DNA of 64,000 nucleotides from an uncultured Gaiellales bacterium (GTDB taxonomy: Bacteria; Actinomycetota; Thermoleophilia; Gaiellales; Gaiellaceae), in contig CAZBYA010000005.1 in assembly GCA_964496175.1 (NCBI GenBank), forward strand, positions 6,481-70,480, written 5' to 3'. A model generated the notes under the pieces. That model did not search any database. It was not told where the DNA came from and was given only the letters and a program-made list of their open reading frames with translations. Position 1 is the stretch's first letter. Each line of letters starts with the position of its first letter. The translations under genes and the position numbers were made by a program. Below, one piece after another: positions 1,409 to 53,905 of this stretch.

Positions 1409-1428
1409 AGTTTAGCCGTGACTAAATC
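1409..1428. promoter_or_regulatory. AT-rich inverted repeat (TTTAG-N6-CTAAA); candidate DtxR/MntR-type operator just upstream of mntH
   Basis: The plus-strand sequence 'agtttagccgtgactaaatc' sits in the 20-nt gap between the hpt stop (1422-1424) and the mntH start (1399-1401). It is unusually AT-rich for this DNA. No consensus scoring was possible. Confidence 0.25.
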
Positions 1429-1961
1429 TGCCGCAGCAGGCGCAGGTCCGGCAGGTTCCGGTAGCGCTCCCCGAGCTCGAAGCCGTAGCCGACGAAGAAC
1501 TCGTCCGGGATCGTGAAGCCCACGTAGCGCACCGGCAGGTCGTCCACGAGCCGGCGGTAGGGCCGGTCGAAGAGGGTCGCGATGCAGAGCGAGGCGGGCC
1601 GGCGGATCGCCAGCGACCGCACGAGGTAGTGCATCGTCATGCCGGTGTCGATCACCGCGTCGATCAGCACCACGTCGCGCCCATCGATCTCGGTGTCGAG
1701 GTCCTTGAGGAAGCGGATGCCGTCGCCGCCCTGCCCATAGCCGGCCAGCTCGACGAAGTCGAGCTCGTGGTGGATCTCGAGGTTGCGGGAGAGGTCGCAG
1801 ACGAAGGGAATGCAGGCCTTCAGCGAGCCGACGAGCAGCGGCTCCCGGCCGGCGTAGTCGCGGTCGAGCTCGGCCCCCAGCTCGCGGACGCGCGCGCCGA
1901 TCTCCTCGGCGGCGAGGAAGACCTCGCCGATGCGCTCGTCGCGGGCGGCCAGGGTGCTCAG
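1422..1961 (-). CDS. hpt: Hypoxanthine/guanine phosphoribosyltransferase
   Basis: The C-terminal ~180 aa of the 290-aa track ORF look like 6-oxopurine PRTases (PRPP loop 'VVLIDAVIDTGMTM', 'GFTIPDEFFVGYGFE'). The upstream part of that ORF is an Arg-rich shadow of the neighbouring gene. No in-frame ATG/GTG/TTG exists between 1961 and 2292, so the start is placed at CTG 1959-1961. The 5' end is uncertain. Confidence 0.8.
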   Translation of the reverse strand: MSTLAARDERIGEVFLAAEEIGARVRELGAELDRDYAGREPLLVGSLKACIPFVCDLSRNLEIHHELDFVELAGYGQGGDGIRFLKDLDTEIDGRDVVLIDAVIDTGMTMHYLVRSLAIRRPASLCIATLFDRPYRRLVDDLPVRYVGFTIPDEFFVGYGFELGERYRNLPDLRLLRQI

Positions 1962-2326
1962 GACGCCTTCCGCAGGCCGTACCGGGCCGCCAGGCGTTCG
2001 AAGTCGCGCTCGTAGAAGAGCTTGATCTTGACGTCGGGGTAGAGCTGCCGCAGCTTGCGCAGCTTCCGGTTCTTCCGCGTGACCAGCGACTGCTTCATCA
2101 CGGTCACCTCCAGGTAGAGATCCTGCTCCGGGAGGTAGAAGTCCGGCGTGAACGCCTCGGTGACGCGACCCTCCGCGTCGCGCTCGAGGACGAACGTGGT
2201 CGGCTCGTACTGCCAGGGGATGCCGTGCCAGTCGAGCACCTTGGCGTACTCGAGTTCCGCGGGGTTGGCGAAGCGCGGCGGTTCTGCACCGCAATATGCC
2301 TGGAAAACAGGCGTTTCCGGCACCAC
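1958..2326 (-). CDS. Small PD-(D/E)xK nuclease-like protein resembling phage T7 endonuclease I family
   Basis: The frame is strongly GC3-rich. 'AELEYAKVLDWHGIPWQYEP...FTPDFYLPEQDLYLEVT...RKNRKLRKLRQLYPDVKIKLFY' follows the E / (Y/F)TPDF / hydrophobic-E layout I recall for T7 endonuclease I. The start is set at GTG 2324-2326 to avoid overlap with the divergent gene. In-frame ATGs at 2405-2407 and 2390-2392 are alternatives. Confidence 0.55.
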   Translation of the reverse strand: MVPETPVFQAYCGAEPPRFANPAELEYAKVLDWHGIPWQYEPTTFVLERDAEGRVTEAFTPDFYLPEQDLYLEVTVMKQSLVTRKNRKLRKLRQLYPDVKIKLFYERDFERLAARYGLRKAS

Positions 2327-2371
2327 TTCAGCCAGGGTAGCAGCGGCCTCGGATGCTCTAGAGTCACCGCG

Positions 2372-3163
2372 GTGCCCTCGACGATCGCCCATCTCTCCGA
2401 TCTCCATTGCGGCGAACCTCACTTCGTACCGGACCTCCTGGAACGAGCGATTGCCGAGATCAACGACGTCAAACCAGAAATCGTCATTTGCACCGGCGAC
2501 TTGACCACCTTCGGGTTCAAGGCGGAGTACGCCGAGGCGAAGCGCTACCTCGACCGGATCGAGTGCGAGTCGCTCGTCGTCGTCCCGGGCAATCACGACT
2601 CGCGGAACGTCGGCTACGTCCACTTCGAGGAGCACTTCGGCGCCCGCTCGTCGGTGCTGCGCAAGGGCGGCGTGACCGTGGTGGCGGTCGACTCGACCGA
2701 GCCCGACCTCGACCACGGGCAGATCGGCCGCGGCCGCTACGGGTGGATCGAGGAGCAGTTCGCGGCCGAGCCGTCGGAGCTCAAGGTCTTCGTGCTGCAC
2801 CACCACCTGCTGCCGATCCCCGGCACCGGGCGGGAGCGGAACGTCGTCTACGACGCCGGCGACGCGCTCGAATGCCTGCAGCGCGCCGGCGCCCACCTGG
2901 TGCTCTCCGGCCACAAGCACGTGCCGTACGCGTGGAAGCTGGAGAACCTCTTCGTGGTCAACGCGGGGACGGTCTCGACCCTGCGCCTGCGCGGTCACAC
3001 GCGTCCCTGTTACAACCTGATCGAGGTCTCGGGCACGCACGTGGCCGTCTGGCGCCGCTACCCGTTCCACGGGCAGGAGCGGATCATCCAGTTCGACGTC
3101 GCGACCGGCGAGTACGAGAAGTACACGGGCCGGATCGAGTCGGAGGTGACGGCGAAGCGGTGA
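2372..3163 (+). CDS. Calcineurin-like metallophosphoesterase
   Basis: Motifs present: 'IAHLSDLHCG', 'ICTGDLT', 'VPGNHD', 'VLHHH', 'LSGHKH'. GTG start at 2372. The stop overlaps the next gene's GTG (GTGA at 3160-3163). Confidence 0.85.
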   Translation: MPSTIAHLSDLHCGEPHFVPDLLERAIAEINDVKPEIVICTGDLTTFGFKAEYAEAKRYLDRIECESLVVVPGNHDSRNVGYVHFEEHFGARSSVLRKGGVTVVAVDSTEPDLDHGQIGRGRYGWIEEQFAAEPSELKVFVLHHHLLPIPGTGRERNVVYDAGDALECLQRAGAHLVLSGHKHVPYAWKLENLFVVNAGTVSTLRLRGHTRPCYNLIEVSGTHVAVWRRYPFHGQERIIQFDVATGEYEKYTGRIESEVTAKR

Positions 3164-4260
3164 CGCGAGCCGTTGCCCTTGTCGACGGGGAGCACTACCC
3201 GCCGGTGGTGCGCGAGGCGCTGGCGGCGCTGCCGTACGAGTGGGTGGGCGCGATCCTCGTCGGCGGGACGGAGAAGCTGCGCGGAAAGCTCGACTACGGC
3301 GTCCCGCTCGTCGACGGCTTCGGCGACGCGGAGGTGGTGGTGGACGTCTCGGACGAGCCGGTGCTCGGCCCGGCGGAGCGGTTCCGCTGGGCCTCGCGAG
3401 CGCTCGCCGCCGGGCTGCCGTACGTGGGCGCCGACTTCCGCTTCGACCCGCCCGAGCTGGCGCTGTTCGAGCTGCCGTCGGTCGCCGTGATCGGCACCGG
3501 CAAGCGCGTCGGCAAGACCGCCGTCGCCGTCCACCTGGCGCGGCTGTACGCGCGCGACCGGTCGGTCGTCGTCGTCTCGATGGGGCGCGGCGGCCCCGCC
3601 GAGCCGGAGCTCGTCGCGACGCCGCCGACGCTCGAGCAGCTCGTTGAGCGCTCGCGCGCCGGCGGCCACGCCGCGTCCGACCACCTCGAGACGGCGCTGC
3701 TCGCGGGCGTGCCGACGATCGGCTGCCGGCGCGCCGGCGGCGGGCTCGCGGGCGCCGTCCTCACCTCGAACCTCGCGGCCGGCGCCCGGCTGGCGGCGGA
3801 GCTGCGTCCCGACGTGGTCGTGTTCGACTCGAGCGGCGCCGCGATCCCCCCGGTCGCCGTCGACCGCCGCGTGCTGGTCACCGGCCGCGGCCGCGACGCC
3901 GACGGCTACCTGAACACGTACCGCCGGCTGATCTCCGACGTCGTCGTCGCCGACCCGGAGCTGCGCCTCCGGCCGACGGGGCCGCTCGAGGGCCGCGTCG
4001 CCGTCTTCACCGCGGGCGCGACCGACGTCGCACACCTCGACGCCGACGTCGTCCACGTTTCGACGAGCCTCGCCGACCGCGAGGCGCTCCGCCGCGACCT
4101 GGTCGACGCCGACACGTACCTCGTCGAGCTGAAGGCCGCCGCGGTCGACGTCGTCGTCGAGCACGCGCTCGCGCAGGGCATCCGCGTCGTCGTCGCCGGC
4201 CACGACGTCGTCGGCGTCGACGACGAGGCGCTGCTCGCGCTCGCGCCGGTGGCTGCGTGA
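3160..4260 (+). CDS. cpgS: Cyclic 2,3-diphosphoglycerate synthetase-like protein
   Basis: 366 aa. 'LVDGEHYPPVV', P-loop 'VIGTGKRVGKTAV', 'MGRGGPAEPE', 'HAASDHLETALL', 'GCRRAGGGLAG', 'SGAAIPPV' and 'ELKAAAVDVV' match the motif series I recall from methanogen cDPG synthetases. Shorter than the ~460-aa archaeal enzymes. Confidence 0.75.
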   Translation: MTRAVALVDGEHYPPVVREALAALPYEWVGAILVGGTEKLRGKLDYGVPLVDGFGDAEVVVDVSDEPVLGPAERFRWASRALAAGLPYVGADFRFDPPELALFELPSVAVIGTGKRVGKTAVAVHLARLYARDRSVVVVSMGRGGPAEPELVATPPTLEQLVERSRAGGHAASDHLETALLAGVPTIGCRRAGGGLAGAVLTSNLAAGARLAAELRPDVVVFDSSGAAIPPVAVDRRVLVTGRGRDADGYLNTYRRLISDVVVADPELRLRPTGPLEGRVAVFTAGATDVAHLDADVVHVSTSLADREALRRDLVDADTYLVELKAAAVDVVVEHALAQGIRVVVAGHDVVGVDDEALLALAPVAA

Positions 4261-5165
4261 ACTCGAAGCCCAGGCACGGGACGCCGTTGCCGCTCGGCGA
4301 CGCGGAGTTCCCGTACTCGAAGGGCATGATGGCGCGCGCGCTGATCGCAGCCGGAGTCGCGCCCGAGCGCGCGTACCTGCTGGCGCAGCGGCTCGAGCTC
4401 GACCTGGCCGAGCGCGGCGAGCGCTCCGCGGGGATCGAGCGGCTGCTCGAGCTGGCGCGGGAGACGCTCGGCGTCGAGGAGGGGGAGCGCGCGACGCGGC
4501 GGCTCCAGCGCCTCGCCGACCTACAGGCCCTCGACGTGCCGCTGATCGTGCTCGTCGGCGGCACCACCGGCACGGGCAAGTCGACGGTGGCGGTGGAGGT
4601 CGCGCACCGCCTCGGGATCACGCGCGTCGCGTCGACCGACTTCATCCGGCAGACGATGCGCGCGTTCTTCTCGCGCGAATTCATGCCGGCGATCCACTAC
4701 TCGAGCTTCGAGGCGGGCCGGGCGGTCGAGCCCGACGTCACCGGCGACCCGACCGTGCTCGGCTTCGTCGAGCAGTGCCGCCAGGTCTGCGTGGGCGTCG
4801 AGGCGGCGGTTCACCGCGCGCTGACCGAGGGCTGGTCGATGGTGCTCGAGGGCGTGCACCTGGTGCCGGGGCTCGTCCCGGCGGCCGTTGACGGGGCGGT
4901 GCTGGTGCACGTCGTGATGGAGATCGCCGACGAGCAGGTGCACCGCACCCACTTCCACGTCCGCGACGCCGCCACGGGCGGCATCCGGCCGATGGAGAAG
5001 TACCTCGACCGGCTGGACGACATCCGCCGCATCCAGGGCTACGTCGTCGGCAGGGCCCGCCGCGAGGGGGTGGCGGTGGTCGAGAATGCGAACGTGGAGC
5101 GGACGATCGACGAGGTGCTCGACCTGGTGATGCAGGCCGCGGAGGGGGTGACGGCGCGCCCATGA
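4257..5165 (+). CDS. 2-phosphoglycerate kinase-like P-loop kinase
   Basis: GTG start overlaps the cpgS stop (GTGA). N-terminal 'FPYSKGMMARALIAAGVAPERAY', P-loop 'LVGGTTGTGKSTVA' and 'TDFIRQTMRAF...IHYSSFEAG' resemble archaeal 2-PG kinase. Confidence 0.75.
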   Translation: MNSKPRHGTPLPLGDAEFPYSKGMMARALIAAGVAPERAYLLAQRLELDLAERGERSAGIERLLELARETLGVEEGERATRRLQRLADLQALDVPLIVLVGGTTGTGKSTVAVEVAHRLGITRVASTDFIRQTMRAFFSREFMPAIHYSSFEAGRAVEPDVTGDPTVLGFVEQCRQVCVGVEAAVHRALTEGWSMVLEGVHLVPGLVPAAVDGAVLVHVVMEIADEQVHRTHFHVRDAATGGIRPMEKYLDRLDDIRRIQGYVVGRARREGVAVVENANVERTIDEVLDLVMQAAEGVTARP

Positions 5166-6145
5166 GCGAGCTGGAGGCGCCCCCGCGGCCCTTCTGCCAG
5201 TGCGAGAGCTTCGCGCGCGTGACCGAGCGCGCGGCGCTCGCCGGCGCGCGCTGGCTCGGGCGCGCCGACCAGGAGGCGGCCGAGGAGGCCGCGTTCTCGG
5301 GCGCGCGGCTCGCGCTGGAGCGGCTGCCGGTCGACGGTCAGATCGTGATCGGCGCGCACGAGGGCGCGGAGCAGCTGGCGGCCGGCACGTCGATCGGCGC
5401 GGGCGGCGAGGCGTACGACCTGGCGCTCGACCCGCTCGAGGGGCGCTCGGTGGTCGCCCGCGGCGGGACGAACGCGATCTCGATGATCGCCGCGTCGCCC
5501 CGCGGGTCGATGCCGTCGCTGCCCGACATGTACATGCGAAAGATGGCCGTCGGCCCGGTCGCGCGCGGCAAGATCGCGCTGTCGAAGCCCGTCGGCGACA
5601 ACATCCGCTCGATCGCCGACGCGCTCGGTCGCATGGTCAACGACATCACGGCGATCGTGCTCGACCGGCCGCGCCACCACGACCTGATCGAGGAGATCCG
5701 CGCGTCGGGCGCGCGCATCAAGCTGATCCAGGACGGCGACGTCACCGCCTCGATCAGCGCGGCGGTGCGCGGCACCAACGACCACCTCGCGATCGGAATC
5801 GGAGGCACGCGCCAGGCGGTGCTCGCGGCGGCGGCGCTGCGCTGCCTCGGCGGCGAGCTCCAGGCGCAGCTGTGGCCGACGCGACGGGCGGAGATCGAGG
5901 AGGCGCGGGCGCACGGCGTCGAGGACGTCGACCGCGTCTTCACGATCGACGACCTCGCCCCGCAGGAGGTGATCGTCGCGGCGACCGGCGTCTCGAACGG
6001 CGACCTGCTGCGCGGCGTCCGCTTCCTCGCCGACTCGGCCCGCACGCACTCGCTCGTCATGTGCACCCGCTGCAACTGGGTGCGCTTCGTCGACGGCATC
6101 CACTTCTTCGCACGCGAGCGGCGCGAGGAGGTCCGGCTCAGTTAG
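5162..6145 (+). CDS. glpX: Class II fructose-1,6-bisphosphatase
   Basis: ATGA overlap with the preceding gene. The 327-aa product shows GlpX-type sequence throughout ('LALDPLEG', 'KLIQDGDV', 'IGIGGTRQAVLAAAALRCLGGELQ'). Confidence 0.9.
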   Translation: MSELEAPPRPFCQCESFARVTERAALAGARWLGRADQEAAEEAAFSGARLALERLPVDGQIVIGAHEGAEQLAAGTSIGAGGEAYDLALDPLEGRSVVARGGTNAISMIAASPRGSMPSLPDMYMRKMAVGPVARGKIALSKPVGDNIRSIADALGRMVNDITAIVLDRPRHHDLIEEIRASGARIKLIQDGDVTASISAAVRGTNDHLAIGIGGTRQAVLAAAALRCLGGELQAQLWPTRRAEIEEARAHGVEDVDRVFTIDDLAPQEVIVAATGVSNGDLLRGVRFLADSARTHSLVMCTRCNWVRFVDGIHFFARERREEVRLS

Positions 6146-6154
6146 CCTCCCGCC

Positions 6155-6454
6155 ATGCCCAGCCAGGAAGAGGTCGTCGAGGCGCTGCGCCAGGTCGAGG
6201 ACCCGGAGCTCGGGATGGACATCGTCGAGCTCGGGCTCTTCTACGACGCCGAGATCGAGGGCCAGGCGGTGAAGGTCCGCTACACGCTGACGTCGATGGG
6301 GTGCCCGGCGGGACCGCTGATCCAGGAGGACATCGAGCGCGTCCTGCACGAGATCCCCGGCGTCGAGTCGGTCGAGAGCGAGCTCGTCTTCGACCCGCCC
6401 TGGACGCCGGACAAGATGTCCGACGACGCGAAGTTCATCCTCGGCTTCGGCTAG
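6155..6454 (+). CDS. DUF59/MIP18-family Fe-S cluster assembly factor (SufT/PaaD-like)
   Basis: 99 aa. 'VVEALRQVEDPELGMDIVELGL' and 'TLTSMGCPAG' are typical of DUF59 proteins. Confidence 0.85.
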   Translation: MPSQEEVVEALRQVEDPELGMDIVELGLFYDAEIEGQAVKVRYTLTSMGCPAGPLIQEDIERVLHEIPGVESVESELVFDPPWTPDKMSDDAKFILGFG

Positions 6455-6656
6455 GCCCCGGCGTCGCAGGAGGCGGTCGACACGCTGCGCTTCGCGGCTC
6501 TGATCGTCCCGATTGGACATCAACCATTCGGATGATCTTCGGTCGCGGGCCGACCGAGTACACCCTTCGGGTTATGTGCATGTCCCGTTCTCAGCTTCAG
6601 CGTGACGCGACCGCGCCGCCGCCGGGGCAGCGCCAACGCACGAAGGAGGTCACGTC

Positions 6657-7112
6657 ATGAAACGGGTGGCGATCTTGGCGGTTCTCGTCCTCACCCTGGG
6701 ACTCCTCGCGGCCGCGTCCGCGTCGATTGCAAGCGCGAAGCCGATCGGGGACGTGCTCTGCGGTCAGACGTGTGGCGGTGGGGGCGGAACGACCCAGTGT
6801 GGAACCGCGTCTGGCCAGGACCACTGGGACGACGGATTCATCGGCGACTGGTACACCGTCTACCTCGGCGTGAACTTCTGCTGGAACGGCTCAACGATCG
6901 TGTCGGCCTCGATTCAGCAGGACGGCTGCCGCGCCGGTGGCATCTACGGCTGCGGAAGCACGAACGGCCCCTTCTTGGTCGGGGGAGGTCCCGGCCAGGG
7001 CTTCGCCCACTACACGTACAACGCCAACGTGATCCTTGAGACGACGCCCCCGAACACGTACAACAAGACGGTGGATTGCTACGTGTACGCGAGTGGGAGC
7101 TGGAGCTGCTGA
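6657..7112 (+). CDS. Secreted Cys-rich hypothetical protein
   Basis: The SD 'aaggagg' lies 7 nt upstream of the ATG. Signal peptide 'MKRVAILAVLVLTLGLLAAASASIASA'. The mature part contains 8 Cys. More A/T-ending codons than in neighbouring genes. Confidence 0.6.
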   Translation: MKRVAILAVLVLTLGLLAAASASIASAKPIGDVLCGQTCGGGGGTTQCGTASGQDHWDDGFIGDWYTVYLGVNFCWNGSTIVSASIQQDGCRAGGIYGCGSTNGPFLVGGGPGQGFAHYTYNANVILETTPPNTYNKTVDCYVYASGSWSC

Positions 7113-7438: not shown

Positions 7439-7969
7439 ATGCAGCGGCGGCTCCTCATCATCATCGGTATCGCGGCGGTGGCCCTTGCGGCGGCCACAGC
7501 GGCGGCGGCCTCGACCCTGACGACAACGGCGACGGTCACCGGCACGGCCGGGATCTCGCTCAACCTCCCGTCGAACCCGTCGGTCTCCGACACGCTCGAC
7601 GGCACCGATCAGACCGTCACGTACGCCCCCGTGCTCGGCGTCGTCGACGCCCGCGGCACCGGCGCCGGCTGGAACGTGACGATCGCGGCGACCACCTTCT
7701 CCGACGGCTCCGGCCACTCGCTCGCCGCCGGCACCGTCACCGGTGTCAGCGCGGCCTGTCACAGCGGCTCGACCTGCACCGCGGCGACCAACGCGATCAC
7801 CTACCCGCTGACGCTCAGCGCGACGGCGGCGAAGGTCTTCAACGCGGCCGCCAACACCGGCCTCGGCAAGGTCGACGTCACCCCGACCGTCTCCGTGGCG
7901 ATCCCCGGCAACTCCTACGCCGGCAGCTACACCTCGACCGTCACGCTCGCGACCGTCAGCGGCCCGTAA
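7439..7969 (+). CDS. Secreted WxL-domain-like surface protein
   Basis: Signal peptide 'MQRRLLIIIGIAAVALAAATAAAA'. 'VVDARGTGAGWNVTIAATTFSDG' and the C-terminal 'GSYTSTVTLATV' resemble WxL-type domains. Confidence 0.55.
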   Translation: MQRRLLIIIGIAAVALAAATAAAASTLTTTATVTGTAGISLNLPSNPSVSDTLDGTDQTVTYAPVLGVVDARGTGAGWNVTIAATTFSDGSGHSLAAGTVTGVSAACHSGSTCTAATNAITYPLTLSATAAKVFNAAANTGLGKVDVTPTVSVAIPGNSYAGSYTSTVTLATVSGP

Positions 7970-31974: not shown

Positions 31975-33306
31975 GTGGACGCTCCCCGGACTCGCTACGC
32001 CCGCAGCGGGAGCCTGAACATCGCGTACCAGGTGTTCGGGGCGGGGTCGCTCGACCTGGTGTACGTGCCCGGCTGGGTGTCGAACGTCGAGGAGGCCTGG
32101 GAGTTCCCGGAGTACGGCGCGTTCCTGCGCCGCCTCGGTTCGTTCGCGCGGGTGCTGATGTTCGACAAGCGCGGCACCGGGTTGTCCGACGCCGTACCGA
32201 TCGACCGCCTCCCGACCCTCGAAGAGCGGATGGACGACGTACGCGCGGTGATGGACGCCGCGCAGTCGCGTCGGGCGGCCGTCTTCGGCGTGTCCGAGGG
32301 CGGGAACATGAGCGTGCTCTTCGCGGCGACCTTCCCCGAGCGGACGAGCGCACTGGTGACCTTCGGAGTCTTCGCGAAGCGCGTTTGGAGCTCGGATTAC
32401 CCGTGGGCGCCGCGTCCCGACGACCGCGCCCGCGAGATCGACGCCGTCGAGCGCGACTGGGCGCAGCTCGATCCGGCCCCGCTCGCGCCGCAGGCGACGC
32501 CGGAGCAGCTCGAGGCGATCGCGCGGTACCTCCGCCGCTCGGCGAGCCCCGGCGCCGCCGCTGCGCTCCTGCGTATGAACACGCAGATCGACGTGCGGCA
32601 CGTCCTGCCGACAGTGTCCGTGCCGGCGCTCGTCCTCCACCGCACGCACGACCGGGACGTCGACGTCGAGGAAGGACGCTGGATCGCGTCGCAGATCCCG
32701 GGCGCTCGCTTCGTCGAGCTGCCCGGAGACGCACACCTGCCGTGGCTCGGCGACTCCGACCGGCTGCTCGTCGAGATCGAGGAGTTCCTGACGGGCGCGC
32801 GGCCCGGCGTGGAGACCTCGCGAGTCCTCTCCACGATCCTCTTCACCGACGTTGTCGGCTCCACCGAAATCGCGGCGCGAGTCGGCGACGAACGGTGGCG
32901 CGCGCTCCTCGAGCAGCATCACTCCGTCGTCCGCAGGGAGCTCGCGCGCCACCGCGGAATCGAGCTCGACACGGCCGGCGACGGCTTCTTCGCCCGCTTC
33001 GACGGCCCCGCGCGCGCCGTCCGGTGCGCAGCGGCGATCGTCGACCGTGTGCGGGAGGAGGTCGGGCTCGACCTGCGCGCAGGGGTCCACACCGGAGAGT
33101 GCGAGCTCGTCGACGGCAAGCTCGCCGGCATCGCCGTCCACACCGGCGCGCGCGTCGCCGCCGCGGCCCAGGCGGGCGAGGTGCTCGTCTCCTCGACGGT
33201 GAAGGCGCTCGTCGCGGGCTCGGGAATCGACTTCGAGGATCGCGGCGCCGCCCGGCTCAAGGGCATCGACGAGACGTGGCAGCTCTTCCGGCTCGCGCAG
33301 GCGTGA
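31975..33306 (+). CDS. Alpha/beta-hydrolase domain fused to class III adenylate/guanylate cyclase domain
   Basis: The N-terminal half carries 'FGVSEGG' (a nucleophile-elbow-like motif). The C-terminal half carries 'ILFTDVVGST', 'DTAGDGFFARF' and 'GVHTGE'. Confidence 0.85.
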   Translation: MDAPRTRYARSGSLNIAYQVFGAGSLDLVYVPGWVSNVEEAWEFPEYGAFLRRLGSFARVLMFDKRGTGLSDAVPIDRLPTLEERMDDVRAVMDAAQSRRAAVFGVSEGGNMSVLFAATFPERTSALVTFGVFAKRVWSSDYPWAPRPDDRAREIDAVERDWAQLDPAPLAPQATPEQLEAIARYLRRSASPGAAAALLRMNTQIDVRHVLPTVSVPALVLHRTHDRDVDVEEGRWIASQIPGARFVELPGDAHLPWLGDSDRLLVEIEEFLTGARPGVETSRVLSTILFTDVVGSTEIAARVGDERWRALLEQHHSVVRRELARHRGIELDTAGDGFFARFDGPARAVRCAAAIVDRVREEVGLDLRAGVHTGECELVDGKLAGIAVHTGARVAAAAQAGEVLVSSTVKALVAGSGIDFEDRGAARLKGIDETWQLFRLAQA

Positions 33307-41669: not shown

Positions 41670-42439
41670 CCGCCCGCGTCGCCTGGATCTCGCTGACGCC
41701 CGTCAAGGCGCTCGCGCTCGCCCAGGTCGACGAGATCGAGCTGGACGAGCACGGGCTGCGCGGCGACCGCCGCTTCTACCTCGTCGACGAAACCGGCCGG
41801 CTCGTCAGCTCCAAGCGGCCGCGCCGCAGCGTCCTGCAGACCGCACGCGCCGAGTACGAGGAGGAGTCCCGCGTACTGACCGTCCGGACGCCCGAGGGCG
41901 ACGTGGACGCGGAGGCGCAGCCGGGCGACGAGCTCGTCACGGACTTCCACGGCGCGCCCAGGCCGGCGCGCGTTGTCGCGGGGCCCTGGGACGAGCTCCT
42001 CTCCGGGCTGGTCGGCGAGCGCCTGCGCCTCGTGGTGCCCGAGGGCCGGGCGCCCGACCGCGGGCGGAGCGGTGCGACCACGCTCCTCGCGACGGCGTCG
42101 CTCGCGGCGCTGGCCCGCGAGCTGGGCGTCGAGCGCGTCGATCCGCGGCGCTTCCGGATGAGCTTCGGCGTCGAGGGTCTCGAGCCGCACGAGGAGGACG
42201 GCTGGCTCGGGCGCCGCGTGCGCGTCGGCGACGCCGTCGTCGTGCTGCACGGCAACGTCGGCCGCTGTGCGATCACGACCCAGAACCCCGACACCGGGAC
42301 GTCCGACCTCGACACGCTGAACGCGCTCGCGCGCTACCGCCGCGACGTCGAGACGACCGAGCCGCTGCCGTTCGGCGTCCACGCCGCCGTCGCCGAGCCC
42401 GGGCGGGTGCGCCTGGGCGACCCCGTCGAACCCGTCTAA
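41666..42439 (+). CDS. MOSC domain-containing protein
   Basis: GTGA overlap with the upstream gene. 'GDRRFYLVDE', 'RFRMSFGVEG', conserved Cys in 'GNVGRCAITT'. Confidence 0.8.
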   Translation: MTARVAWISLTPVKALALAQVDEIELDEHGLRGDRRFYLVDETGRLVSSKRPRRSVLQTARAEYEEESRVLTVRTPEGDVDAEAQPGDELVTDFHGAPRPARVVAGPWDELLSGLVGERLRLVVPEGRAPDRGRSGATTLLATASLAALARELGVERVDPRRFRMSFGVEGLEPHEEDGWLGRRVRVGDAVVVLHGNVGRCAITTQNPDTGTSDLDTLNALARYRRDVETTEPLPFGVHAAVAEPGRVRLGDPVEPV

Positions 42440-44046
42440 CCGCTCGCGAGCGGGCAGGGCCCGAGGTCGACGTTCGCCGGCGCGAGCCGGTCGGCCGCGG
42501 GCGCGTTCGTCAGCTCGTCCCAGAGGTTCTCGAGGAAGCGCGAGACGGAGGGGCAGCGGACATCGGTGCCGGCGAGCGTGAACGCGCCGGCGGCGAAGAC
42601 GTGCGCGCCGGCGGACGTCACGTAGTACGTCATCTCGGCGGGTTGGCCCGAGCCGAACACGTCCGGGATCTGCGCGAGCACCTGCGTCTGCGGCGGCGAG
42701 TCGGCGGTGCGATGGTCGGACTCGATGCCGAAGGCGCCGAACGGCGAGCCGTCGGCGACGCCGGTGCCGGCGAAGAGCCACGGCGCGGCCGCGGTCGAGT
42801 CGACGACGTAGGGAGCCGAGCCCGAGACGCCGTGGTTCCAGTCGAAGTACTCGACGCCGACGAGCGCCGCCTCGGGCCGGCCGAGGTCGCGCCACAGGCC
42901 GATACGTGTGATCGTGTCGCCGCTCTGGTTCACGCGCCAGAAGAAGTTGTTCGCGGAGAGGAAGGCGAGGTTCCCGCCGAGGTCGCGGTAGCGCTGCACG
43001 GCGTCGTACTCCGCCTCCGTCGCGTACTCCTCGTGGCCGGGGAAGACGATCAGGTCGTACAGCTGGCGGAGCCGCTCGCCCGACAGCTGCTGCACGTCGT
43101 CCTGCGCGAGCATGTCGACCTGCTTGCCGCTGCGCGCGAGCCAGCGCAGGAACGTGAGGTCGTACTGGCGGAAGTGCGGAGGGACGCCACGGTCGAGGAA
43201 CGGCCGCGCCAGGTCGACCGTCCGCTGCGTCGCGCGGTAGTACCACGTGTCCGGGACGCCGTCGTGGTTCGAGTCGCGGTAGTTGTAGGCCTGCCACGTG
43301 TTCGTCGGCTCGATCACGGCGACCCGCGACGCGCCGAGCTGCGCGGGGCGGACGATGAACGGCGCGAAGCCGACCTTCGAGCCCGACGTGAGCCGGGCGG
43401 CGTAGAAGCCGCTCGGCCAGTCGCCGACCGTGAACCGGAGCGTGCGCCCGGCGGCGGCGACGTCGATCGGGTCGCCGACGGGGACGCCCTCGAGCGTCCG
43501 GTCGCCGATCGTCAGCTGCTGCTCCGGCCCGACGTGGAGCATCTGGACGCGGAGGTGCGCGTACCGGCCCGACAGCCCGAGCGCCGCGACCTCGCCCGGC
43601 GCGTAGCTCCGGCGGGCGAAGGCGGCGGCGACCGAGGTCGCGTCGGTCGATCGGATGTCGAGACCCGCCGAGGCGTTCGCGATCAGCGTCGTCGGCAGGT
43701 ACGTCGAGTTGCGGATCGACAGCGGCTGCGTCGTCGTCCGCCCGCCGGCCCGGAGCTCGAGGACGTAGCGGCCGTCCCGGATCCGGATCGTGTCGAAGCG
43801 CGGTGAGAGCACCCGGCCGCGTGCGGGCCGCCAGCCGGTCGCGCCCACGAGCCGCCAGCGGTCGACCGGCCGCGAGGCGACCAGCGCGACGGCGCCGGCG
43901 AGGTCGCGGGTGGCGAGCCGGAGGCCGTCGACCTGGGCCCGGACGACCGGGGCGGGCGGCGGGGGCGCGTTGCCCATCACGACCGCGGCCGCCGGCAGCG
44001 CGGCGGCCGAAATCGCCACGAGCAGGGCAATTCGCCGGTCGCCCAT
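42436..44046 (-). CDS. Secreted protein; C-terminal part resembles N,N-dimethylformamidase beta-subunit-like/GATase-like domains
   Basis: ATG 44044-44046. Signal peptide 'MGDRRIALLVAISAAALPAAAVVMG'. 'VAVIEPTNTWQAYNYRD', 'LIVFPGHEEYAT', 'GGNLAFLSANNFFWRV'. The rest of the 864-aa track ORF is antisense to mraZ/rsmH. Confidence 0.65.
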   Translation of the reverse strand: MGDRRIALLVAISAAALPAAAVVMGNAPPPPAPVVRAQVDGLRLATRDLAGAVALVASRPVDRWRLVGATGWRPARGRVLSPRFDTIRIRDGRYVLELRAGGRTTTQPLSIRNSTYLPTTLIANASAGLDIRSTDATSVAAAFARRSYAPGEVAALGLSGRYAHLRVQMLHVGPEQQLTIGDRTLEGVPVGDPIDVAAAGRTLRFTVGDWPSGFYAARLTSGSKVGFAPFIVRPAQLGASRVAVIEPTNTWQAYNYRDSNHDGVPDTWYYRATQRTVDLARPFLDRGVPPHFRQYDLTFLRWLARSGKQVDMLAQDDVQQLSGERLRQLYDLIVFPGHEEYATEAEYDAVQRYRDLGGNLAFLSANNFFWRVNQSGDTITRIGLWRDLGRPEAALVGVEYFDWNHGVSGSAPYVVDSTAAAPWLFAGTGVADGSPFGAFGIESDHRTADSPPQTQVLAQIPDVFGSGQPAEMTYYVTSAGAHVFAAGAFTLAGTDVRCPSVSRFLENLWDELTNAPAADRLAPANVDLGPCPLASG

Positions 44047-44110
44047 AGGCGCCACGATCGCGCCGCGGGCGCGGGCCCGCATCCGTGGTTCCGACGGACG
44101 CCTCCTGGGG

Positions 44111-44139
44111 TTTACAGGTGGGGGAAAGTGGGATACAGT
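44111..44139 (+). promoter_or_regulatory. Candidate sigma-A promoter of the dcw operon (TTTACA-17 nt-TACAGT)
   Basis: The hexamers and the 17-nt spacer were read directly. The -10 hexamer ends 18 nt upstream of the mraZ ATG. Confidence 0.5.
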
Positions 44140-44152
44140 GGGGCGCAGTGGA
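44118..44152 (+). promoter_or_regulatory. Four direct GTGG(G/A) boxes with exact 10-bp phasing (putative MraZ operator)
   Basis: GTGGG at 44118, 44128 and 44138, and GTGGA at 44148. They overlap the candidate promoter and end 5 nt before the mraZ ATG. Confidence 0.6.
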
Positions 44153-44157
44153 CCGCG

Positions 44158-44580
44158 ATGCTCCTCGGTGAACACGACCACGCCCTCGACGAGAAGAACC
44201 GGCTCACGCTGCCCGCGAAGCTGCGCGCGGCCTTCGAGGACGGCGTCGTGATCACGCGCGGGCTCGACGGGTGCCTGTTCGCCTACCCCCGCGCCGAGTG
44301 GGAGGGGATGGCCGAGCGGATCCGCCGCCTCGACCCGCTCGCCCCCGACGCCCGCGTGCTCCAGCGCCACTTCTTCGCGGGCGCGGCGCAGGGCGAGCTC
44401 GACCGCCAGGGCCGGCTCGTGCTGCCGACGACCCTGATCGAGCACGCCGGGCTCGGGCGCGAGGTGACCGTCGCGGGCGTCTACGACCACCTGGAGATCT
44501 GGGACCGAGCGAAGTGGCGCCAGCAGCCGCATCAGGCCGAAGGGAGGGCGGAAGATGTTGCCGAGCGTCTTGCCGACTGA
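44158..44580 (+). CDS. mraZ: Transcriptional regulator MraZ
   Basis: 'MLLGEHDHALDEKNRLTLPAKLR' and a second SpoVT/AbrB-like repeat 'ELDRQGRLVLPTTL'. ATG 44158 is preferred over the track's GTG 44128, which falls inside box 2. Confidence 0.9.
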   Translation: MLLGEHDHALDEKNRLTLPAKLRAAFEDGVVITRGLDGCLFAYPRAEWEGMAERIRRLDPLAPDARVLQRHFFAGAAQGELDRQGRLVLPTTLIEHAGLGREVTVAGVYDHLEIWDRAKWRQQPHQAEGRAEDVAERLAD

Positions 44581-45508
44581 GTCCGACCACGTCCCCGTCC
44601 TCGCCGAGGAGGTCGTGTCGCTGCTCGACCCGCGACCGGGCGAGACCGTCGTCGACGGCACGTTCGGCGCGGGCGGGCACGCAGAGCTGCTCGCCGCGCG
44701 CCTGCGCGGGGAGGGGAAGCTGATCGCGATCGACCGCGATCCGACGGTGGCGCCGTACTTCGAACGGCTCCGTCGCAGTACCGGCGTCAAGGCGAGGCTG
44801 CACCACGGCGAGTTCTCGTCGGTGCTGCGCCAGCTCTCGGAGAACGGCGTGCGCGCCGACGTCGTCCTGCTCGACCTCGGCGTCTCGTCGATGCAGCTCG
44901 ACCGGCCCGACCGCGGCTTCTCGTACGCGGTCGACGCGCCGCTCGACATGCGCATGGACCCGGGCGCGGAGCACTCGGCGCGCGAGCTCGTCAATGAGGC
45001 GGGCGAGCGCGAGCTCGCGGACATCTTCACGCGCTACGGCGAGGAGCGGTACGCACGCCAGATCGCCCGCGCGATCGTGGCGCGCCGCCGCAAGCAGCGG
45101 TTCGAGCGGACGGCCGACCTCGTCGAGACGATCAAGGGCGCGATCCCGGCGCCGGCGCGGTTCGGCGAGGGGCACCCGGCGAAGCGCGTGTTCCAGGCGC
45201 TGCGGATCGAGGTCAACGACGAGCTCGGGTCGCTCGAGCGGGCGCTGCCGGCGGCGCTCGAGATGCTGCGCCCGGGCGGCCGCCTCGGCGTGATCTCCTT
45301 CCACTCGCTCGAGGACCGGCTCGTCAAGCGCTTCCTGCGCGCGCAGGAGCACGGCTGCACCTGCCCGCCCGACTTCCCCGTCTGCGTCTGCGGCTCGCAG
45401 CCGACGATGCGCGCCACGCCGCGCCGCGCGGTTCGCCCGACCGCCGGGGAGATCGCGCGCAACCCGCGCGCCCAGTCGGCGCGCCTGCGCGTGGGGACGA
45501 GGGTCTGA
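44555..45508 (+). CDS. rsmH: 16S rRNA (cytosine1402-N4)-methyltransferase
   Basis: The SD 'gggaggg' lies upstream. 'HVPVL', 'VDGTFGAGGH', 'LLDLGVSSMQLD', 'ISFHSLEDR'. Confidence 0.9.
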   Translation: MLPSVLPTESDHVPVLAEEVVSLLDPRPGETVVDGTFGAGGHAELLAARLRGEGKLIAIDRDPTVAPYFERLRRSTGVKARLHHGEFSSVLRQLSENGVRADVVLLDLGVSSMQLDRPDRGFSYAVDAPLDMRMDPGAEHSARELVNEAGERELADIFTRYGEERYARQIARAIVARRRKQRFERTADLVETIKGAIPAPARFGEGHPAKRVFQALRIEVNDELGSLERALPAALEMLRPGGRLGVISFHSLEDRLVKRFLRAQEHGCTCPPDFPVCVCGSQPTMRATPRRAVRPTAGEIARNPRAQSARLRVGTRV

Positions 45509-45861: not shown

Positions 45862-47541
45862 GTGCGCGAGCAGCACGCCAACCGCCGGATCCGCCTCCTG
45901 CTCCTCATCTTCCTGCTCGCGTTCGCAGGGACGTTCGCGCGCGCCTTCTGGATCCAGGCTGTGCAGGCGGCGTCGCTCGGGCGGATGGCCGAGCGGCAGC
46001 ACCACGAGACCGTGACGGTGCCGCCCAACCGCGGCACGGTCTTCGACCGCACCGGCGTCCCGCTCGCGATCGGCGAGCAGACGATGACCGTCTACGCCGA
46101 CCCGATGCAGGTGACGGACCCCCAGGGGATCGCCGTCGCGGCGCACAAGCTCCTGGGCGCGAACGCGAACGCGCTCTATCCGCAGCTCCTGAACAAGCAC
46201 AGCGGGTTCGTCTACGTGCAGCGCTTCGCCGACGCGCAGGCGGCGGCGGCGTTCCTGAAGCGCGGCTTCGCCGGCGTCAACGCCTACCCGGAGGAGAAGC
46301 GGATCTACCCACAGGGCAGCGTCGCGTCGCAGGTGGTCGGCTTCGCCGGCACCGACGACAACGGGCTGACCGGCCTCGAGCTCGAGTACAACCGGAACCT
46401 CTCGGGGCGCGCGGGCAGGCAGACGATCGTGCGCGACCCGTTCGGCCGGGCGATCGACACGATCGGCTCGACGCCGGTGCGCGAGGGGCAGGGCGTGTTC
46501 ACGACGATCGACAGCGCCATCCAGGCGAACGCCGAGCTGGTGCTGCGGCAGACCGTCGCGCAATGGCACGCGCGCTCGGCGACGGCGATCGTGCTCGACC
46601 CGTCCACGGGCGGGATCCTCGCGATGGCGCAGGCGCCGGGCTACGACGCGAACCAGACCGCGCACGTCGCGCCGGGGCTGCTGACGAACCACGCCGTGAC
46701 CGACGTGTTCGAGCCGGGGTCCGTCTTCAAGCTCGTCACCGTCTCCGGTGCGCTCTCGGAGGGGCTCGTGACGCCGCAGACGAAGTTCGTGCTGCCGCCG
46801 TGCATCCAGGTCGCCGACAAGTGCATCCACGATGCGGAGCCGCGCGGCACCGAGACGATGAGCGTCGCGCAGATCCTCGCGCGCTCGTCGAACGTGGGCG
46901 CCGACACGATCGCGCGTGCGCTCGGGCCCGAGGCGCTGATGAAGTGGATCTACCGCTTCGGCTTCGGGCAGCGCACCGGCCTCGACTTCCCGGGCGAGAG
47001 CGGCGGCATCGTCCCGTCCTATCCGACGCAGTGGTCCGGCACGACGATCGGCAACGTGCCGATCGGTCAGGGCATCGCAGTCACGTCGATCCAGATCGCC
47101 GCCGCCTACGCCTCGATCGCGAACGGCGGCATCTGGGTGCAGCCGCACCTCGTCTCGCGCGTCGGCGGGCGCGTGCTGCACGGCTGGGCCCCCCGGCGGA
47201 TCGTCAGCCCGGCGATCGACGCGGAGCTGAAGAAGATGCTCACCGGCGTCGTCGACGAGCACGGCGCCACCGGCAACGAGGCCGCCATCCCCGGCTACAG
47301 CGTCGCCGGCAAGACGGGCACCGCCCAGGTGCCGGGCCCGCACGGCTATACGACGGGCAAGTACGACGCGACGTTCGTCGGCATGGTGCCGGTGCAGAAC
47401 CCGCGCCTGCTCGTGCTCGTCACCGTCTACGACCCGAAGCTCGCCATCTACGGCGGCGTCGTCGCGGCGCCGGCCTTCGCGCAGATCGCGAAGTTCGACC
47501 TCCAGTACCTGGCCGTCCCACCGGACCAACCCCTGCACTGA
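45862..47541 (+). CDS. ftsI: Class B penicillin-binding protein (septal transpeptidase)
   Basis: N-terminal TM, PBP dimerisation region, and 'GSVFK' (SxxK), 'SSN', 'KTGTA'. Confidence 0.9.
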   Translation: MREQHANRRIRLLLLIFLLAFAGTFARAFWIQAVQAASLGRMAERQHHETVTVPPNRGTVFDRTGVPLAIGEQTMTVYADPMQVTDPQGIAVAAHKLLGANANALYPQLLNKHSGFVYVQRFADAQAAAAFLKRGFAGVNAYPEEKRIYPQGSVASQVVGFAGTDDNGLTGLELEYNRNLSGRAGRQTIVRDPFGRAIDTIGSTPVREGQGVFTTIDSAIQANAELVLRQTVAQWHARSATAIVLDPSTGGILAMAQAPGYDANQTAHVAPGLLTNHAVTDVFEPGSVFKLVTVSGALSEGLVTPQTKFVLPPCIQVADKCIHDAEPRGTETMSVAQILARSSNVGADTIARALGPEALMKWIYRFGFGQRTGLDFPGESGGIVPSYPTQWSGTTIGNVPIGQGIAVTSIQIAAAYASIANGGIWVQPHLVSRVGGRVLHGWAPRRIVSPAIDAELKKMLTGVVDEHGATGNEAAIPGYSVAGKTGTAQVPGPHGYTTGKYDATFVGMVPVQNPRLLVLVTVYDPKLAIYGGVVAAPAFAQIAKFDLQYLAVPPDQPLH

Positions 47542-47548
47542 GCGCCGC

Positions 47549-47585
47549 GGGATTGACTTCCGTCCGGCTGGCGTGAGTCAATCCC
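47549..47585. promoter_or_regulatory. 10-bp perfect inverted repeat GGGATTGACT-N17-AGTCAATCCC
   Basis: It begins 8 nt after the ftsI stop and ends 31 nt before the permease start. It is comparatively AT-rich and contains TTGACT. Confidence 0.35.
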
Positions 47586-47616
47586 CGGCGACCCCCAACC
47601 TAGCCAGGAGGACCTC

Positions 47617-49176: not shown

Positions 49177-49185
49177 CGTTCGTGG

Positions 49186-49215
49186 TAGCGGGGGCGGCTC
49201 CGGCCGCCCCCGCTA
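49186..49215 (+). terminator. 13-bp GC-rich hairpin after the permease
   Basis: TAGCGGGGGCGGC-TCCG-GCCGCCCCCGCTA starts 10 nt after the stop. No U-tract. The murE ATG follows 12 nt later. Confidence 0.45.
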
Positions 49216-49226
49216 GATTCCCGCCG

Positions 49227-50558: not shown

Positions 50559-51745
50559 TCCCGCTCGAGCTCGACGTGCTCGAGCCGCTCGGCCGCCTCG
50601 TGACGCGGCCGTGGGCGGACCTCGTCACCGGCATGCAGGTCGACTCCCGGCGCGTCGAGGAGGGCGACCTGTTCGTCGCGGTCGGCGGCGGCGTCGACTT
50701 CGTCGAGCACGCGCTCGCCCGCGGCGCGGCCGCCGCGCTCGTCCCCGACGACGCGTTCGGCGCGCTCGCCGCGATCGCCGGCGCGGTGCGCGACCGCTCG
50801 AAGGCGCGCGTCGTCGGGATCACCGGCTCGACGGGGAAGACGTCGACGAAGGACATCCTCTACGCGCTCTGCGCGCCGCACCGGCGGACGGTCGCCAACG
50901 AGGGGAACTACAACACCGAGGTCGGCGTCCCCCTCACCGTCTGCCGCCTGGAGCCCGACACGGAGCTGCTGATCACCGAGCTCGCGATGCGCGGGCCCGG
51001 GCAGATCGCGTGGCTGGCCGCGTTCGTCCGGCCCGAGGTGGCGGCGATCACGAACATCGGACCGGCGCACCTGGAGTTCCTCGGCAGCCTGGAGAACATC
51101 GCCCGCGCGAAGGCGGAGCTGATCGAGGCGCTGCCCGCCGGCGGCGTCGCGGTCGTCCCGGAGGAGCCGCTGCTCGAGCCGTTCCTGGGGAGGGCCGACA
51201 TCTTCGTCAAGCGCGTCGACACGGAGTCGCCGCTGCCGTTCGCCACGACCTACAGCTCGCGACACCAGCTCGCGAACACGCGCACCGCGCTGGCGGTCGC
51301 CGAGTGCCTCGACGTCCCGCCGCCGTCGGGGACGCTGCACGTCGAGTTCTCGAAGCACCGGGAGGAGGAGCGTGAGCTTCCCGGCGGCGGGCTGCTGCTG
51401 AACGACTGCTACAACGCGAACCCCGTGTCGATGCGCGCGGCGCTCGAGCACCTGACGGAGCGGGCGGCGGGGAGGCGGCGCGTCGCGGTGCTCGGGGACA
51501 TGCGCGAGCTCGGCCCCGAGGGGCCCGCGTACCACGGCGAGATCGCTGACCTCCTTCGCCGGCTCGGCGTCGAGCGCGTGATCGCCGTCGGGGAGCTCGC
51601 CCGCGCGTACGGCGGCGACTGGGTCGCGACCGCCGAGGAGGCCGCCGCGCGGCTGCGGCAGGAGCTCCAGCCCGGCGACGTCGTGCTGGTGAAGGGCTCG
51701 CTCGCGGTGGGACTCGAGGTCGTCGCGGAGAACCTTACGAGCTGA
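50555..51745 (+). CDS. murF: UDP-N-acetylmuramoyl-tripeptide--D-alanyl-D-alanine ligase
   Basis: GTGA overlap with murE. 'GITGSTGKTSTK', 'NYNTEVGVPLT', 'NDCYNANP'. Confidence 0.9.
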   Translation: MIPLELDVLEPLGRLVTRPWADLVTGMQVDSRRVEEGDLFVAVGGGVDFVEHALARGAAAALVPDDAFGALAAIAGAVRDRSKARVVGITGSTGKTSTKDILYALCAPHRRTVANEGNYNTEVGVPLTVCRLEPDTELLITELAMRGPGQIAWLAAFVRPEVAAITNIGPAHLEFLGSLENIARAKAELIEALPAGGVAVVPEEPLLEPFLGRADIFVKRVDTESPLPFATTYSSRHQLANTRTALAVAECLDVPPPSGTLHVEFSKHREEERELPGGGLLLNDCYNANPVSMRAALEHLTERAAGRRRVAVLGDMRELGPEGPAYHGEIADLLRRLGVERVIAVGELARAYGGDWVATAEEAAARLRQELQPGDVVLVKGSLAVGLEVVAENLTS

Positions 51746-53900: not shown

Positions 53901-53905
53901 AGCGC

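Follow-up and report, generated by a model that had tools for sequence, protein, structure and literature searches.

A conserved metallophosphoesterase–cDPG synthetase–2-phosphoglycerate kinase module in Gaiellales as a candidate operon for cyclic 2,3-diphosphoglycerate metabolism

By analysing a 64,000-nt stretch of DNA from an uncultured Gaiellaceae bacterium (contig CAZBYA010000005.1; hereafter the window), we characterized a four-gene operon at window positions 2372–6145 on the plus strand. Its genes encode a metallophosphoesterase (MPE), a homolog of the synthetase (cDPGS) of cyclic 2,3-diphosphoglycerate (cDPG), a homolog of 2-phosphoglycerate kinase (2PGK) and a GlpX-family protein, joined by 4-nt start/stop overlaps. 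Judged by family-level matches, chance resemblance is ruled out for all four genes. We propose that the operon could be a module for the synthesis and turnover of a cytoplasmic pool of 2,3-diphosphoglycerate (2,3-DPG) and cDPG in a mesophilic soil actinobacterium, a reading to which we give an even chance. The first three genes form a module whose order is kept throughout the Gaiellales loci sampled and which recurs in other lineages, and the fourth gene encodes a protein that carries the family signature of class II fructose-1,6-bisphosphatase (FBPase) without its nucleophile.

The second gene (3160–4260, plus strand; 366 aa) encodes a short-form cDPGS homolog. The protein is similar over its full length to the Methanothermus fervidus cDPGS (PDB 8ORU/8ORK; phmmer E = 1.9e-63) and matches a second solved cDPGS (9SXB; E = 5.6e-58), and the Pfam domain CpgS_N (PF27272) is a precomputed annotation on an identical protein. 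The AlphaFold (AF2) model has a pLDDT of 95.7 and a pTM of 0.92; its top Foldseek match is the ligand-bound structure 8ORU (TMq 0.91, E = 8.4e-33), the next being LpxK at a TMq of 0.46. Seven motifs are spread along the protein: DGEHYPPV (aa 9–16), GTGKRVGKT (112–120), GRGGPAEPE (142–150), HAASDH (170–175), GCRRAGGG (188–195), SGAAIPPV (225–232) and ELKAAAVDV (323–331). In the M. fervidus (Mf) enzyme, 2,3-DPG is contacted by K145, R146 and the trans-subunit E45, Mg is liganded by D208 and T150, K149 and K406 act as charge shields, and E404 contacts the nucleotide (PMC10690619). HMMER alignment places E38/K39, K115/R116/K119/T120, D174 and E323/K325 of the window protein at Mf E45/K46, K145/R146/K149/T150, D208 and E404/K406, respectively. 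In an alignment of 55 family members, taken as representatives at 50% identity, these substrate, Mg and phosphate columns show either no variation or a conservation of at least 90%. On sequence, CpgS_N domain, modelled two-domain 8ORU fold and substrate, Mg and P-loop residues, the window protein classifies as a member of the cDPGS family; the profile and structure matches, with the conserved 2,3-DPG, Mg and ATP-phosphate residues, make it a true homolog, as had been claimed from its motifs. The family has short (~355–397 aa) and long (~430–470 aa) forms. Among Gaiellales loci, cDPGS matches range from 345 to 415 aa.

The third gene (4257–5165, plus strand; 302 aa) likewise encodes a true 2PGK homolog. 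NCBIfam model PRK04220 (2-phosphoglycerate kinase, COG2074) matches with E = 8.5e-79 over model positions 12–293 of 306 (282 positions), and the protein carries FPYSKG (aa 18–23), the Walker A motif GGTTGTGKST (101–110), TDFIRQTMR (127–135) and HYSSF (147–151). All the motifs that the sequence-only reading of this DNA had quoted for the two proteins were thus located in them, and for gene 3 the partnership with cDPGS adds to the case; our searches found no solved relative of the window 2PGK. In the pathway that we propose, the 2PGK homolog would phosphorylate 2-phosphoglycerate (2-PG) to 2,3-DPG, as its family membership and obligate adjacency suggest. The cDPGS homolog would then use ATP to close the intramolecular pyrophosphate ring, converting 2,3-DPG to cDPG, a step to which the conserved fold and the retained substrate, Mg and P-loop contacts of the crystal structure point. 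That the two enzymes together make cDPG in this way is, in our judgement, quite probable.

The order of the module was followed in related and in distant genomes. The Gaiellales synteny set comprises 81 loci; a search with a seven-member alignment as query gave the best 80 of at least 576 stretches that encode a relative. MPE and cDPGS stand together in 81/81 of these loci, and 2PGK then follows in all 79 that are untruncated. A metagenome scan anchored on an alignment of the MPE yielded loci L096–L175, with G+C contents of 36–72%. Here cDPGS follows the MPE in each of the 66 loci that reach at least 400 nt past the MPE; its start lies less than 400 nt away in 63 of them and 430–480 nt away in the other three, where the tblastn alignments are partial. 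2PGK is present in 39 of the 42 MPE-anchored loci that extend far enough.

Distant lineages were reached via contigs encoding representative family members. The triad of MPE, cDPGS and 2PGK is also found in the deep actinobacterial-like contigs L086, L089 and L095. L086 (44% G+C), which we take to be actinobacterial by its lysA-hom-thrC...rho-rpmE synteny, has the order MPE (52.6% identity to the window), cDPGS (38%), 2PGK (39%), TAL/FSA and rho, and L095 (54% G+C, lineage unassigned) has an S49 peptidase, MPE (59.7%), cDPGS (35.7%) and 2PGK (40.8%). cDPGS and 2PGK are adjacent in both, and also in three contigs from farther afield. In a Cloacimonadota metagenome-assembled genome (MAG; L087) they are followed by a CBS gene and a tandem double MPE, and in a Borrarchaeum-like Asgard contig (L092) they lie between a GDPD gene and a tandem double MPE. 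In a Thermococcus paralvinellae MAG (L093:4467–8171) a gene for a mannosylglycerate synthase-type glycosyltransferase precedes cDPGS and a 2PGK with an ATP-cone; two different compatible-solute pathways adjoin there, a compatible-solute context for the cDPGS–2PGK pair. The cDPGS gene, cpgS, stands alone in L088 and L091 (Methanobacteriales) and in L094 (an unclassified bacterium). Across phyla and domains the MPE is obligately linked to the module, of which no other member is as well conserved; it surpasses both synthetic enzymes (52–60% versus 36–41% identity in L086 and L095).

The MPE itself (gene 1; 2372–3163, plus strand; 263 aa; Pfam Metallophos, E = 4.6e-19) has all five metal motifs intact: SDLH (aa 9–12), GDLT (42–45), GNHD (73–76), HHH (143–145) and GHKH (180–183). 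It also carries a subfamily motif, GTGRERN (aa 151–157), which in the form PGTGRERN is common to the module-linked MPEs of four lineages. Public pipelines label its orthologs Icc/CpdA; the NCBIfam model of the 3',5'-cAMP phosphodiesterase CpdA/Icc, NF008359, scores 41.1 bits on the window protein, below its cut-off of 225. Among solved structures, Rv0805 and GpdQ come closest to it, both by sequence and by structure, at 15–21% identity. The linkage of the MPE to cDPGS is strict, and its substrate is therefore likely to differ from those of Rv0805, CpdA and GpdQ. A cDPG hydrolase activity has been described biochemically in M. thermautotrophicus (PMC1224877, PMC7819960), and no gene for it is named in the literature that we searched. 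We propose that the MPE would hydrolyse cDPG and/or 2,3-DPG towards phosphoglycerate, making the pool mobilisable. The strict linkage and the intact dinuclear-metal site point to this step, whose chances we place a little short of even. The enzyme may therefore be called, as it had been beforehand, a candidate cDPG/2,3-DPG hydrolase: the functional linkage is now much strengthened (66/66 loci and a triad that crosses domains) and well supported at the genomic level, with cDPG and/or 2,3-DPG as putative substrates. In two lineages the MPE beside the module is a tandem double-domain protein (L087:10733–12232, 499 aa, Cloacimonadota; L092:8367–9902, 511 aa, Asgard archaeon), and in L087 the metal motifs of its C-terminal half are degenerate (GG for GD, PAGRD for GNHD, GTSSH for GHKH) and pseudo-enzyme-like.

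The fourth gene (5162–6145, plus strand; 327 aa) had been read as a class II FBPase (glpX), an assignment of which the family part stands and the catalytic part is doubtful. Membership of the GlpX family is clear from Pfam FBPase_glpX (E = 4.8e-106), from a marginal pass of the class II FBPase model TIGR00330 (277.5 bits versus a cut-off of 259.3) and from the match to M. tuberculosis GlpX (6AYY; E = 8e-68). Class II FBPases have an M1 metal site DPxE, a P6 pocket RPR and an IxDGD motif (PMC10289334), and the window protein keeps all three as DPLE (aa 90–93), LDRPRH (aa 167) and IQDGDV (aa 189). Where M. tuberculosis GlpX has DPIDG-T-T, however, the window protein has DPLEG-R-S, with Arg95 at the position of the nucleophile Thr, a residue whose replacement leaves the enzyme completely inactive both in M. 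tuberculosis (T84A) and in F. tularensis (T89A) (PMC10289334, PMC5485559). The GEGEKD segment is shortened as well and is hypervariable in Gaiellales orthologs. Among 63 of these orthologs the nucleophile region reads DPLEG-R-G in 38, -R-A in 11 and -R-S in a few, with Arg in about 60 of the 63; distant module-linked copies (L114, L126, L136, L138, L159, L168 and L171) have Ala, His or Leu at this position. In L114 the Gly before it is also replaced, and the M1 Asp is sometimes lost in distant copies. Thr was found at the nucleophile position in no module-linked GlpX-like ortholog examined, and FBPase activity is therefore doubtful, as is the coupling of gluconeogenic flux to the module that a working FBPase had been thought to provide. 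The protein is better not annotated as a functional FBPase. It may instead serve as a regulator or ligand sensor, as a scaffold, or as a phosphatase of different mechanism or substrate, for example one with a metal-water mechanism, perhaps acting on 2,3-DPG. In two metagenome contigs (L159 and L168) the order is MPE, cDPGS, GlpX-like, with no detectable 2PGK between the last two, and the GlpX-like protein has lost both the M1 Asp (EPVEG) and the RPR motif (RER).

A GlpX-like gene occurs in 63 Gaiellales loci and is missing in 10, where a DUF59 gene comes directly after 2PGK. In many lineages outside Gaiellales (L096, L099–L102, L104–L106, L108, L112, L113, L116, L132 and L169) a TAL/FSA-family (transaldolase or fructose-6-phosphate aldolase) gene replaces the GlpX-like gene after 2PGK, and in L086 and L089 the TAL/FSA gene is itself followed by rho and by rho-rpmE, respectively. 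A sugar-phosphate-type protein, GlpX-like or TAL/FSA, thus habitually follows the module. Bacillus has a tal-glpX-rho-rpmE neighbourhood. Since rho and rpmE lie downstream in L086/L089, the adjacency of the GlpX-like gene may partly reflect this old neighbourhood.

As to the role of the pool, it would act as an anionic compatible solute and/or as a reserve of phosphate, carbon and energy. In a mesophile, a solute or a phosphate reserve is likely to be the more plausible function compared with thermoprotection. Given that the relatives are found in MAGs from soil and permafrost, the thermoprotective role that the sequence-only reading had attached to the pair is unlikely. A broader proposal joins all these parts: that cDPG/2,3-DPG metabolism is widespread in mesophilic soil Actinomycetota (all Gaiellales) and in some Cloacimonadota and Asgard archaea, that it is encoded by a three-gene module with the MPE as hydrolase, and that the Thr-less GlpX-like protein is a new non-FBPase, either a regulator or a 2,3-DPG phosphatase. 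We offer this combination tentatively, as a possibility that falls clearly below even chances.

Several observations weigh against a cDPG module. The short-form cDPGS is without ~30 residues (Mf 300–334), including the adenosine-contacting E305, and Mf T353 aligns with a Gly in the window protein; E305, P335 and T353 make the adenosine/ribose contacts of the M. fervidus enzyme. This region is variable across the cDPGS family and may not be family-defining. A second segment, an N-domain insert of ~16 residues, is also missing; both segments are still present in P0122 (428 aa), which is 64% identical to the window cDPGS, and the deletions are therefore recent within the lineage. With 265 bits, the 2PGK homolog does not reach the equivalog cut-off of PRK04220 (343), and proteins of the 2PGK family have other roles elsewhere, such as that reported for plant LPA1 in phytate synthesis. 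The closest structural relatives of the MPE, Rv0805 and GpdQ, are phosphodiesterases, not pyrophosphatases. Neither MPE nor 2PGK was found within 6–8 kb of cpgS in the Methanobacteriales loci L088 and L091; where the pathway is known, among the Methanobacteriales sampled, whose cDPG production is biochemically proven, the MPE is not demonstrably part of it. Co-transcription of genes for synthesis and hydrolysis would also risk a futile cycle unless the enzymes are regulated, and the bacterial members of these families are known from sequence alone.

Some of these observations would be accommodated if the same folds carried out different chemistry, acting on another phosphorylated acid or forming another cyclic or linear pyrophosphate, with the MPE, and possibly the GlpX-like protein, as biosynthetic enzymes. 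The MPE might, for example, cleave the P-O-C bond of cDPG to give glycerate pyrophosphate. Its obligate linkage and its higher conservation relative to the synthetic enzymes fit a core step better than an accessory hydrolase, and its nearest relatives cleave phosphodiesters; cDPG-accumulating methanogens have no linked MPE in the loci sampled, and the short-form cDPGS has lost two segments. However, all residues reported to contact 2,3-DPG in the M. fervidus enzyme are conserved, and no additional biosynthetic genes are consistently linked to the module; we consider such a different chemistry unlikely.

The pathway may alternatively end at 2,3-DPG or mainly serve it, as a primer for cofactor-dependent phosphoglycerate mutase or as a regulatory metabolite. 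In this view cDPGS would work in both directions, as a phosphagen buffer of small size (cDPG + ADP + Pi -> ATP), the phosphoesterases setting the level. The M. fervidus cDPGS has been reported to be reversible and is discussed in terms of energy storage (PMC1224877), and L086 has a gene for a phosphoglycerate mutase 2.4 kb upstream. Its Pfam domains (Metalloenzyme, PhosphMutase) nevertheless mark that mutase as cofactor-independent, and three or four dedicated and universally conserved genes are many for a trace cofactor; we regard a pathway devoted to 2,3-DPG as quite unlikely.

A third possibility is the horizontal acquisition of an archaeal pathway for a thermoprotectant, expressed together with a true class II FBPase that would let gluconeogenic flux run into cDPG for heat or osmotic protection. 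In its favour, the pair is homologous to the methanogen enzymes, 2-PG is the point at which cDPG biosynthesis leaves gluconeogenesis (PMC1224877), the TIGR00330 cut-off is exceeded by the fourth protein, and most lineages have a gene for a sugar-phosphate enzyme (GlpX-like or TAL/FSA) after the module. The absence of the nucleophile Thr from all module-linked GlpX-like copies stands against the FBPase half of this scenario, and composition and distribution stand against the transfer half. The operon has a GC content of 0.66–0.77 and a G+C content at third codon positions (GC3) of 0.93–0.98, the same as its neighbours, on which ground a recent horizontal transfer was rejected; the rest of the window is core chromosome, including a dcw cluster with FtsZ, SecDF, QueA and a PafBC-like protein. 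The closest cDPGS proteins (at least 80% identity) are from Gaiellaceae, Gaiellales or Thermoleophilia MAGs. Relatives are encoded in at least 576 stretches of a one-genome-per-species collection, and the best 80 of these are all from Gaiellales-type MAGs, at 56–81% identity and with the module syntenic throughout; the MAG names of several relatives point to palsa, permafrost and soil catalogues.

The wider family tells the same way. It comprises 947 clusters at 50% identity (E <= 1e-3), 236 of them at E <= 1e-30. Its other bacterial sources include Rubrobacteraceae, Coriobacteriia, Acidimicrobiales, Pseudonocardiaceae and Cloacimonadota, and its archaeal sources include Methanobacteriaceae, Thermococcus paralvinellae and the Asgard groups Hodarchaeota and Borrarchaeum. 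Labelled members are mostly Actinomycetota, in a large radiation apart from the archaeal branch. In a rough neighbour-joining tree, midpoint-rooted on the frameshifted P0128, with most tips unlabelled and with no direction of transfer inferred, the labelled archaeal sequences share one branch with P0209, a protein labelled "bacterium" (from L094), and with unlabelled tips, far from the window clade. A fragment search with M. fervidus returned mostly truncated or frameshifted gene calls of at most 375 aa, and was used for names and archaeal contexts only. On this distribution the module reads as ancestral in Gaiellales and widespread in Actinomycetota, with no recent archaeal import. The archaeal-to-bacterial transfer that had been suggested for testing is thus not detectable here, given the native composition, the module in 79/79 Gaiellales loci and the separate actinobacterial radiation; the label "archaeal-type" reflects where the enzymes were first studied. 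We regard the scenario of transfer with a working FBPase as very unlikely. That the genes are decayed, non-functional remnants carried along by synteny and named by homology only, as the degenerate GlpX-like active site and the shortened cDPGS might suggest, is hardly credible against the intact reading frames with their strong coding signal (GC3 0.93–0.98), catalytic residues invariant across the family, overlapping junctions conserved in dozens of species and a high-confidence predicted cDPGS fold. We also rejected a link to F420 or 2-phospholactate, since the pair occurs in Thermococcus and Cloacimonadota, which to our knowledge do not produce F420.

The layout of the operon agrees with a tightly coupled unit of four genes. 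Direct reading confirmed the four frames, their coordinates and their junctions as first described, namely a GTGA overlap of MPE and cDPGS (3160–3163), a GTGA overlap of cDPGS and 2PGK (4257–4260) and an ATGA overlap of 2PGK and the GlpX-like gene (5162–5165), all on the plus strand. The coupling claimed for them is upheld by the relatives, in which the 4-nt overlap is also kept at 57/81, 65/79 and 36/62 of the respective junctions. GC3 is 0.93–0.98 in each of the four frames, and independent public gene calls on the identical contig give the same products (263, 366, 302 and 327 aa, then a 99-aa gene). The divergent intergenic region of 48 bp (2324–2371), between the start of orf121 (2323, minus strand) and that of the MPE (2372), is presumed to hold the promoter. 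A scan of positions 1900–6800 for sigma-70 consensus promoters and terminators found none; none are expected at such a G+C content, and the scan is uninformative on co-transcription. An Rfam search of the whole window found no riboswitch or RNA element.

The 99-aa gene, absent from the sequence-only reading, encodes a DUF59/SufT-like Fe-S assembly protein (6155–6454, plus strand; Pfam FeS_assembly_P, E = 3.1e-20) and starts 9 nt past the GlpX-like gene. The SufT model TIGR02945 gives 97 bits, under its equivalog cut-off of 143.4, and the Pfam domain is the only match above threshold. Among relatives, anything between 9 nt and >1.6 kb separates it from the preceding gene; on account of this variable spacing we rejected it as a member of the module, to which it is loosely linked and probably does not belong.

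On the other side of the operon, orf121 (1958–2323, minus strand; 121 aa) is divergent from it and lies 48 bp upstream. It has no Pfam or other family match, and no gene nearby is as well conserved (68–93% identity across 74 Gaiellales loci). By eye, a PD-(D/E)xK-like motif may be present (…TPDFYLPE…LYLEVTVMK…). The gene adjoins the module within Gaiellales only and is not beside it in other lineages; with no family match and this restricted neighbourhood, a role as operon regulator is at most a possibility. The 5' end of a hypoxanthine/guanine phosphoribosyltransferase-type gene (1422–1970, minus strand) apparently overlaps the 3' end of orf121; its start is uncertain, public callers giving 83, 128 and 204 aa in different relatives.

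Farther along the window we observed a small protein rich in Cys and Gly, predicted to be secreted and without a family match (6657–7112, plus strand), and a WxL-domain surface protein (7439–7969, plus strand; Pfam 2.2e-10), WxL domains being best known from Firmicutes. The gene at 31975–33306 (plus strand) encodes an alpha/beta-hydrolase domain fused to an adenylate/guanylate cyclase catalytic domain (Pfam 2.4e-09 and 7.2e-12). Directly upstream of the dcw cell-wall and division cluster (PBP, MraY, MurG, MurB, FtsZ; 45862–60110) is a gene for an 864-aa protein (42436–45030, minus strand) whose C-terminal part matches an N,N-dimethylformamidase beta-subunit-like domain (1.2e-59).

cDPG has been reported as an extremolyte of archaea, chiefly hyperthermophilic methanogens (PMC10690619). 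The literature that we searched reports it in archaea only, which agrees with the statement in the sequence-only reading that cDPG accumulation is characterised biochemically in thermophilic methanogens alone. It is discussed as an osmolyte, as a thermostabiliser and as a store of carbon, phosphate and energy (PMC1224877, PMC7819960). In our full-text search, cDPG genes were discussed for archaea only, and nothing paired Gaiella with diphosphoglycerate. NCBI and JGI already name many of the relatives "cyclic 2,3-diphosphoglycerate synthase"; as far as we can tell, the universal presence in Gaiellales, the MPE–cDPGS–2PGK module that crosses domains and the Thr-less GlpX-like partner are undescribed. 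The cDPG pathway is probably not limited to heat-loving archaea. Reconstructions of the ancestors of ammonia-oxidising archaea are one example in which the cDPG synthetase gene has served as a genomic indicator of thermophily (PMC7554672, PMC7819960). If Gaiellales, a mostly uncultured order recovered largely as soil MAGs, universally carry and use the pathway, this marker would be unsafe and the ecological role of cDPG would need rethinking, with protection against desiccation or osmotic stress, or the storage of phosphate and energy in oligotrophic soil, as candidate roles. The strict linkage of the MPE offers a concrete gene candidate for the cDPG hydrolase. PGAP-style calls of "class II FBPase" for the Thr-less GlpX-like proteins may be wrong, which would affect reconstructions of gluconeogenesis. 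Mesophilic enzymes could also aid the biotechnological production of cDPG (PMC12136491).

Among known systems, the closest is the M. fervidus pathway (2PGK and cDPGS; 8ORK/8ORU), with the same two enzyme families and the same fold (TMq 0.91). The two cDPGS proteins share the P-loop GTGKR(V/I)GKT, the HAASDH Mg ligand, ELKAAAVDV and the trans-subunit GGTEK residues, and the sequence of reactions from 2-PG would be expected to be the same. They differ in that the window protein is ~35% identical and shorter (366 versus 460 aa), with the N-domain insert and the Mf 300–334 segment missing. The window host is a mesophilic soil bacterium whose operon includes the MPE and GlpX-like genes, whereas cpgS is alone in the Methanobacteriales loci sampled. 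The MPE resembles the class III cyclic-nucleotide phosphodiesterase Rv0805/CpdA and the glycerophosphodiesterase GpdQ in its dinuclear-metal fold and in all five metal motifs, but differs from them in its low identity (15–21%), its own PGTGRERN motif and its strict linkage to cDPGS. The fourth protein belongs to the same family as GlpX of M. tuberculosis, F. tularensis and E. coli and retains DPxE, RPR and IxDGD, but unlike these class II FBPases it has Arg95 for the Thr (M. tuberculosis T84, F. tularensis T89) and a shortened GEGEKD segment. An analogy in organisation is offered by the E. coli ppk-ppx operon, in which a polyphosphate kinase and an exopolyphosphatase place the synthesis and hydrolysis of a reserve in one transcription unit; the two systems use unrelated protein families, and what E. 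coli stores is a polymer, not a small cyclic pyrophosphate, but genes for synthesis and hydrolysis would be joined in the window operon in the same way.

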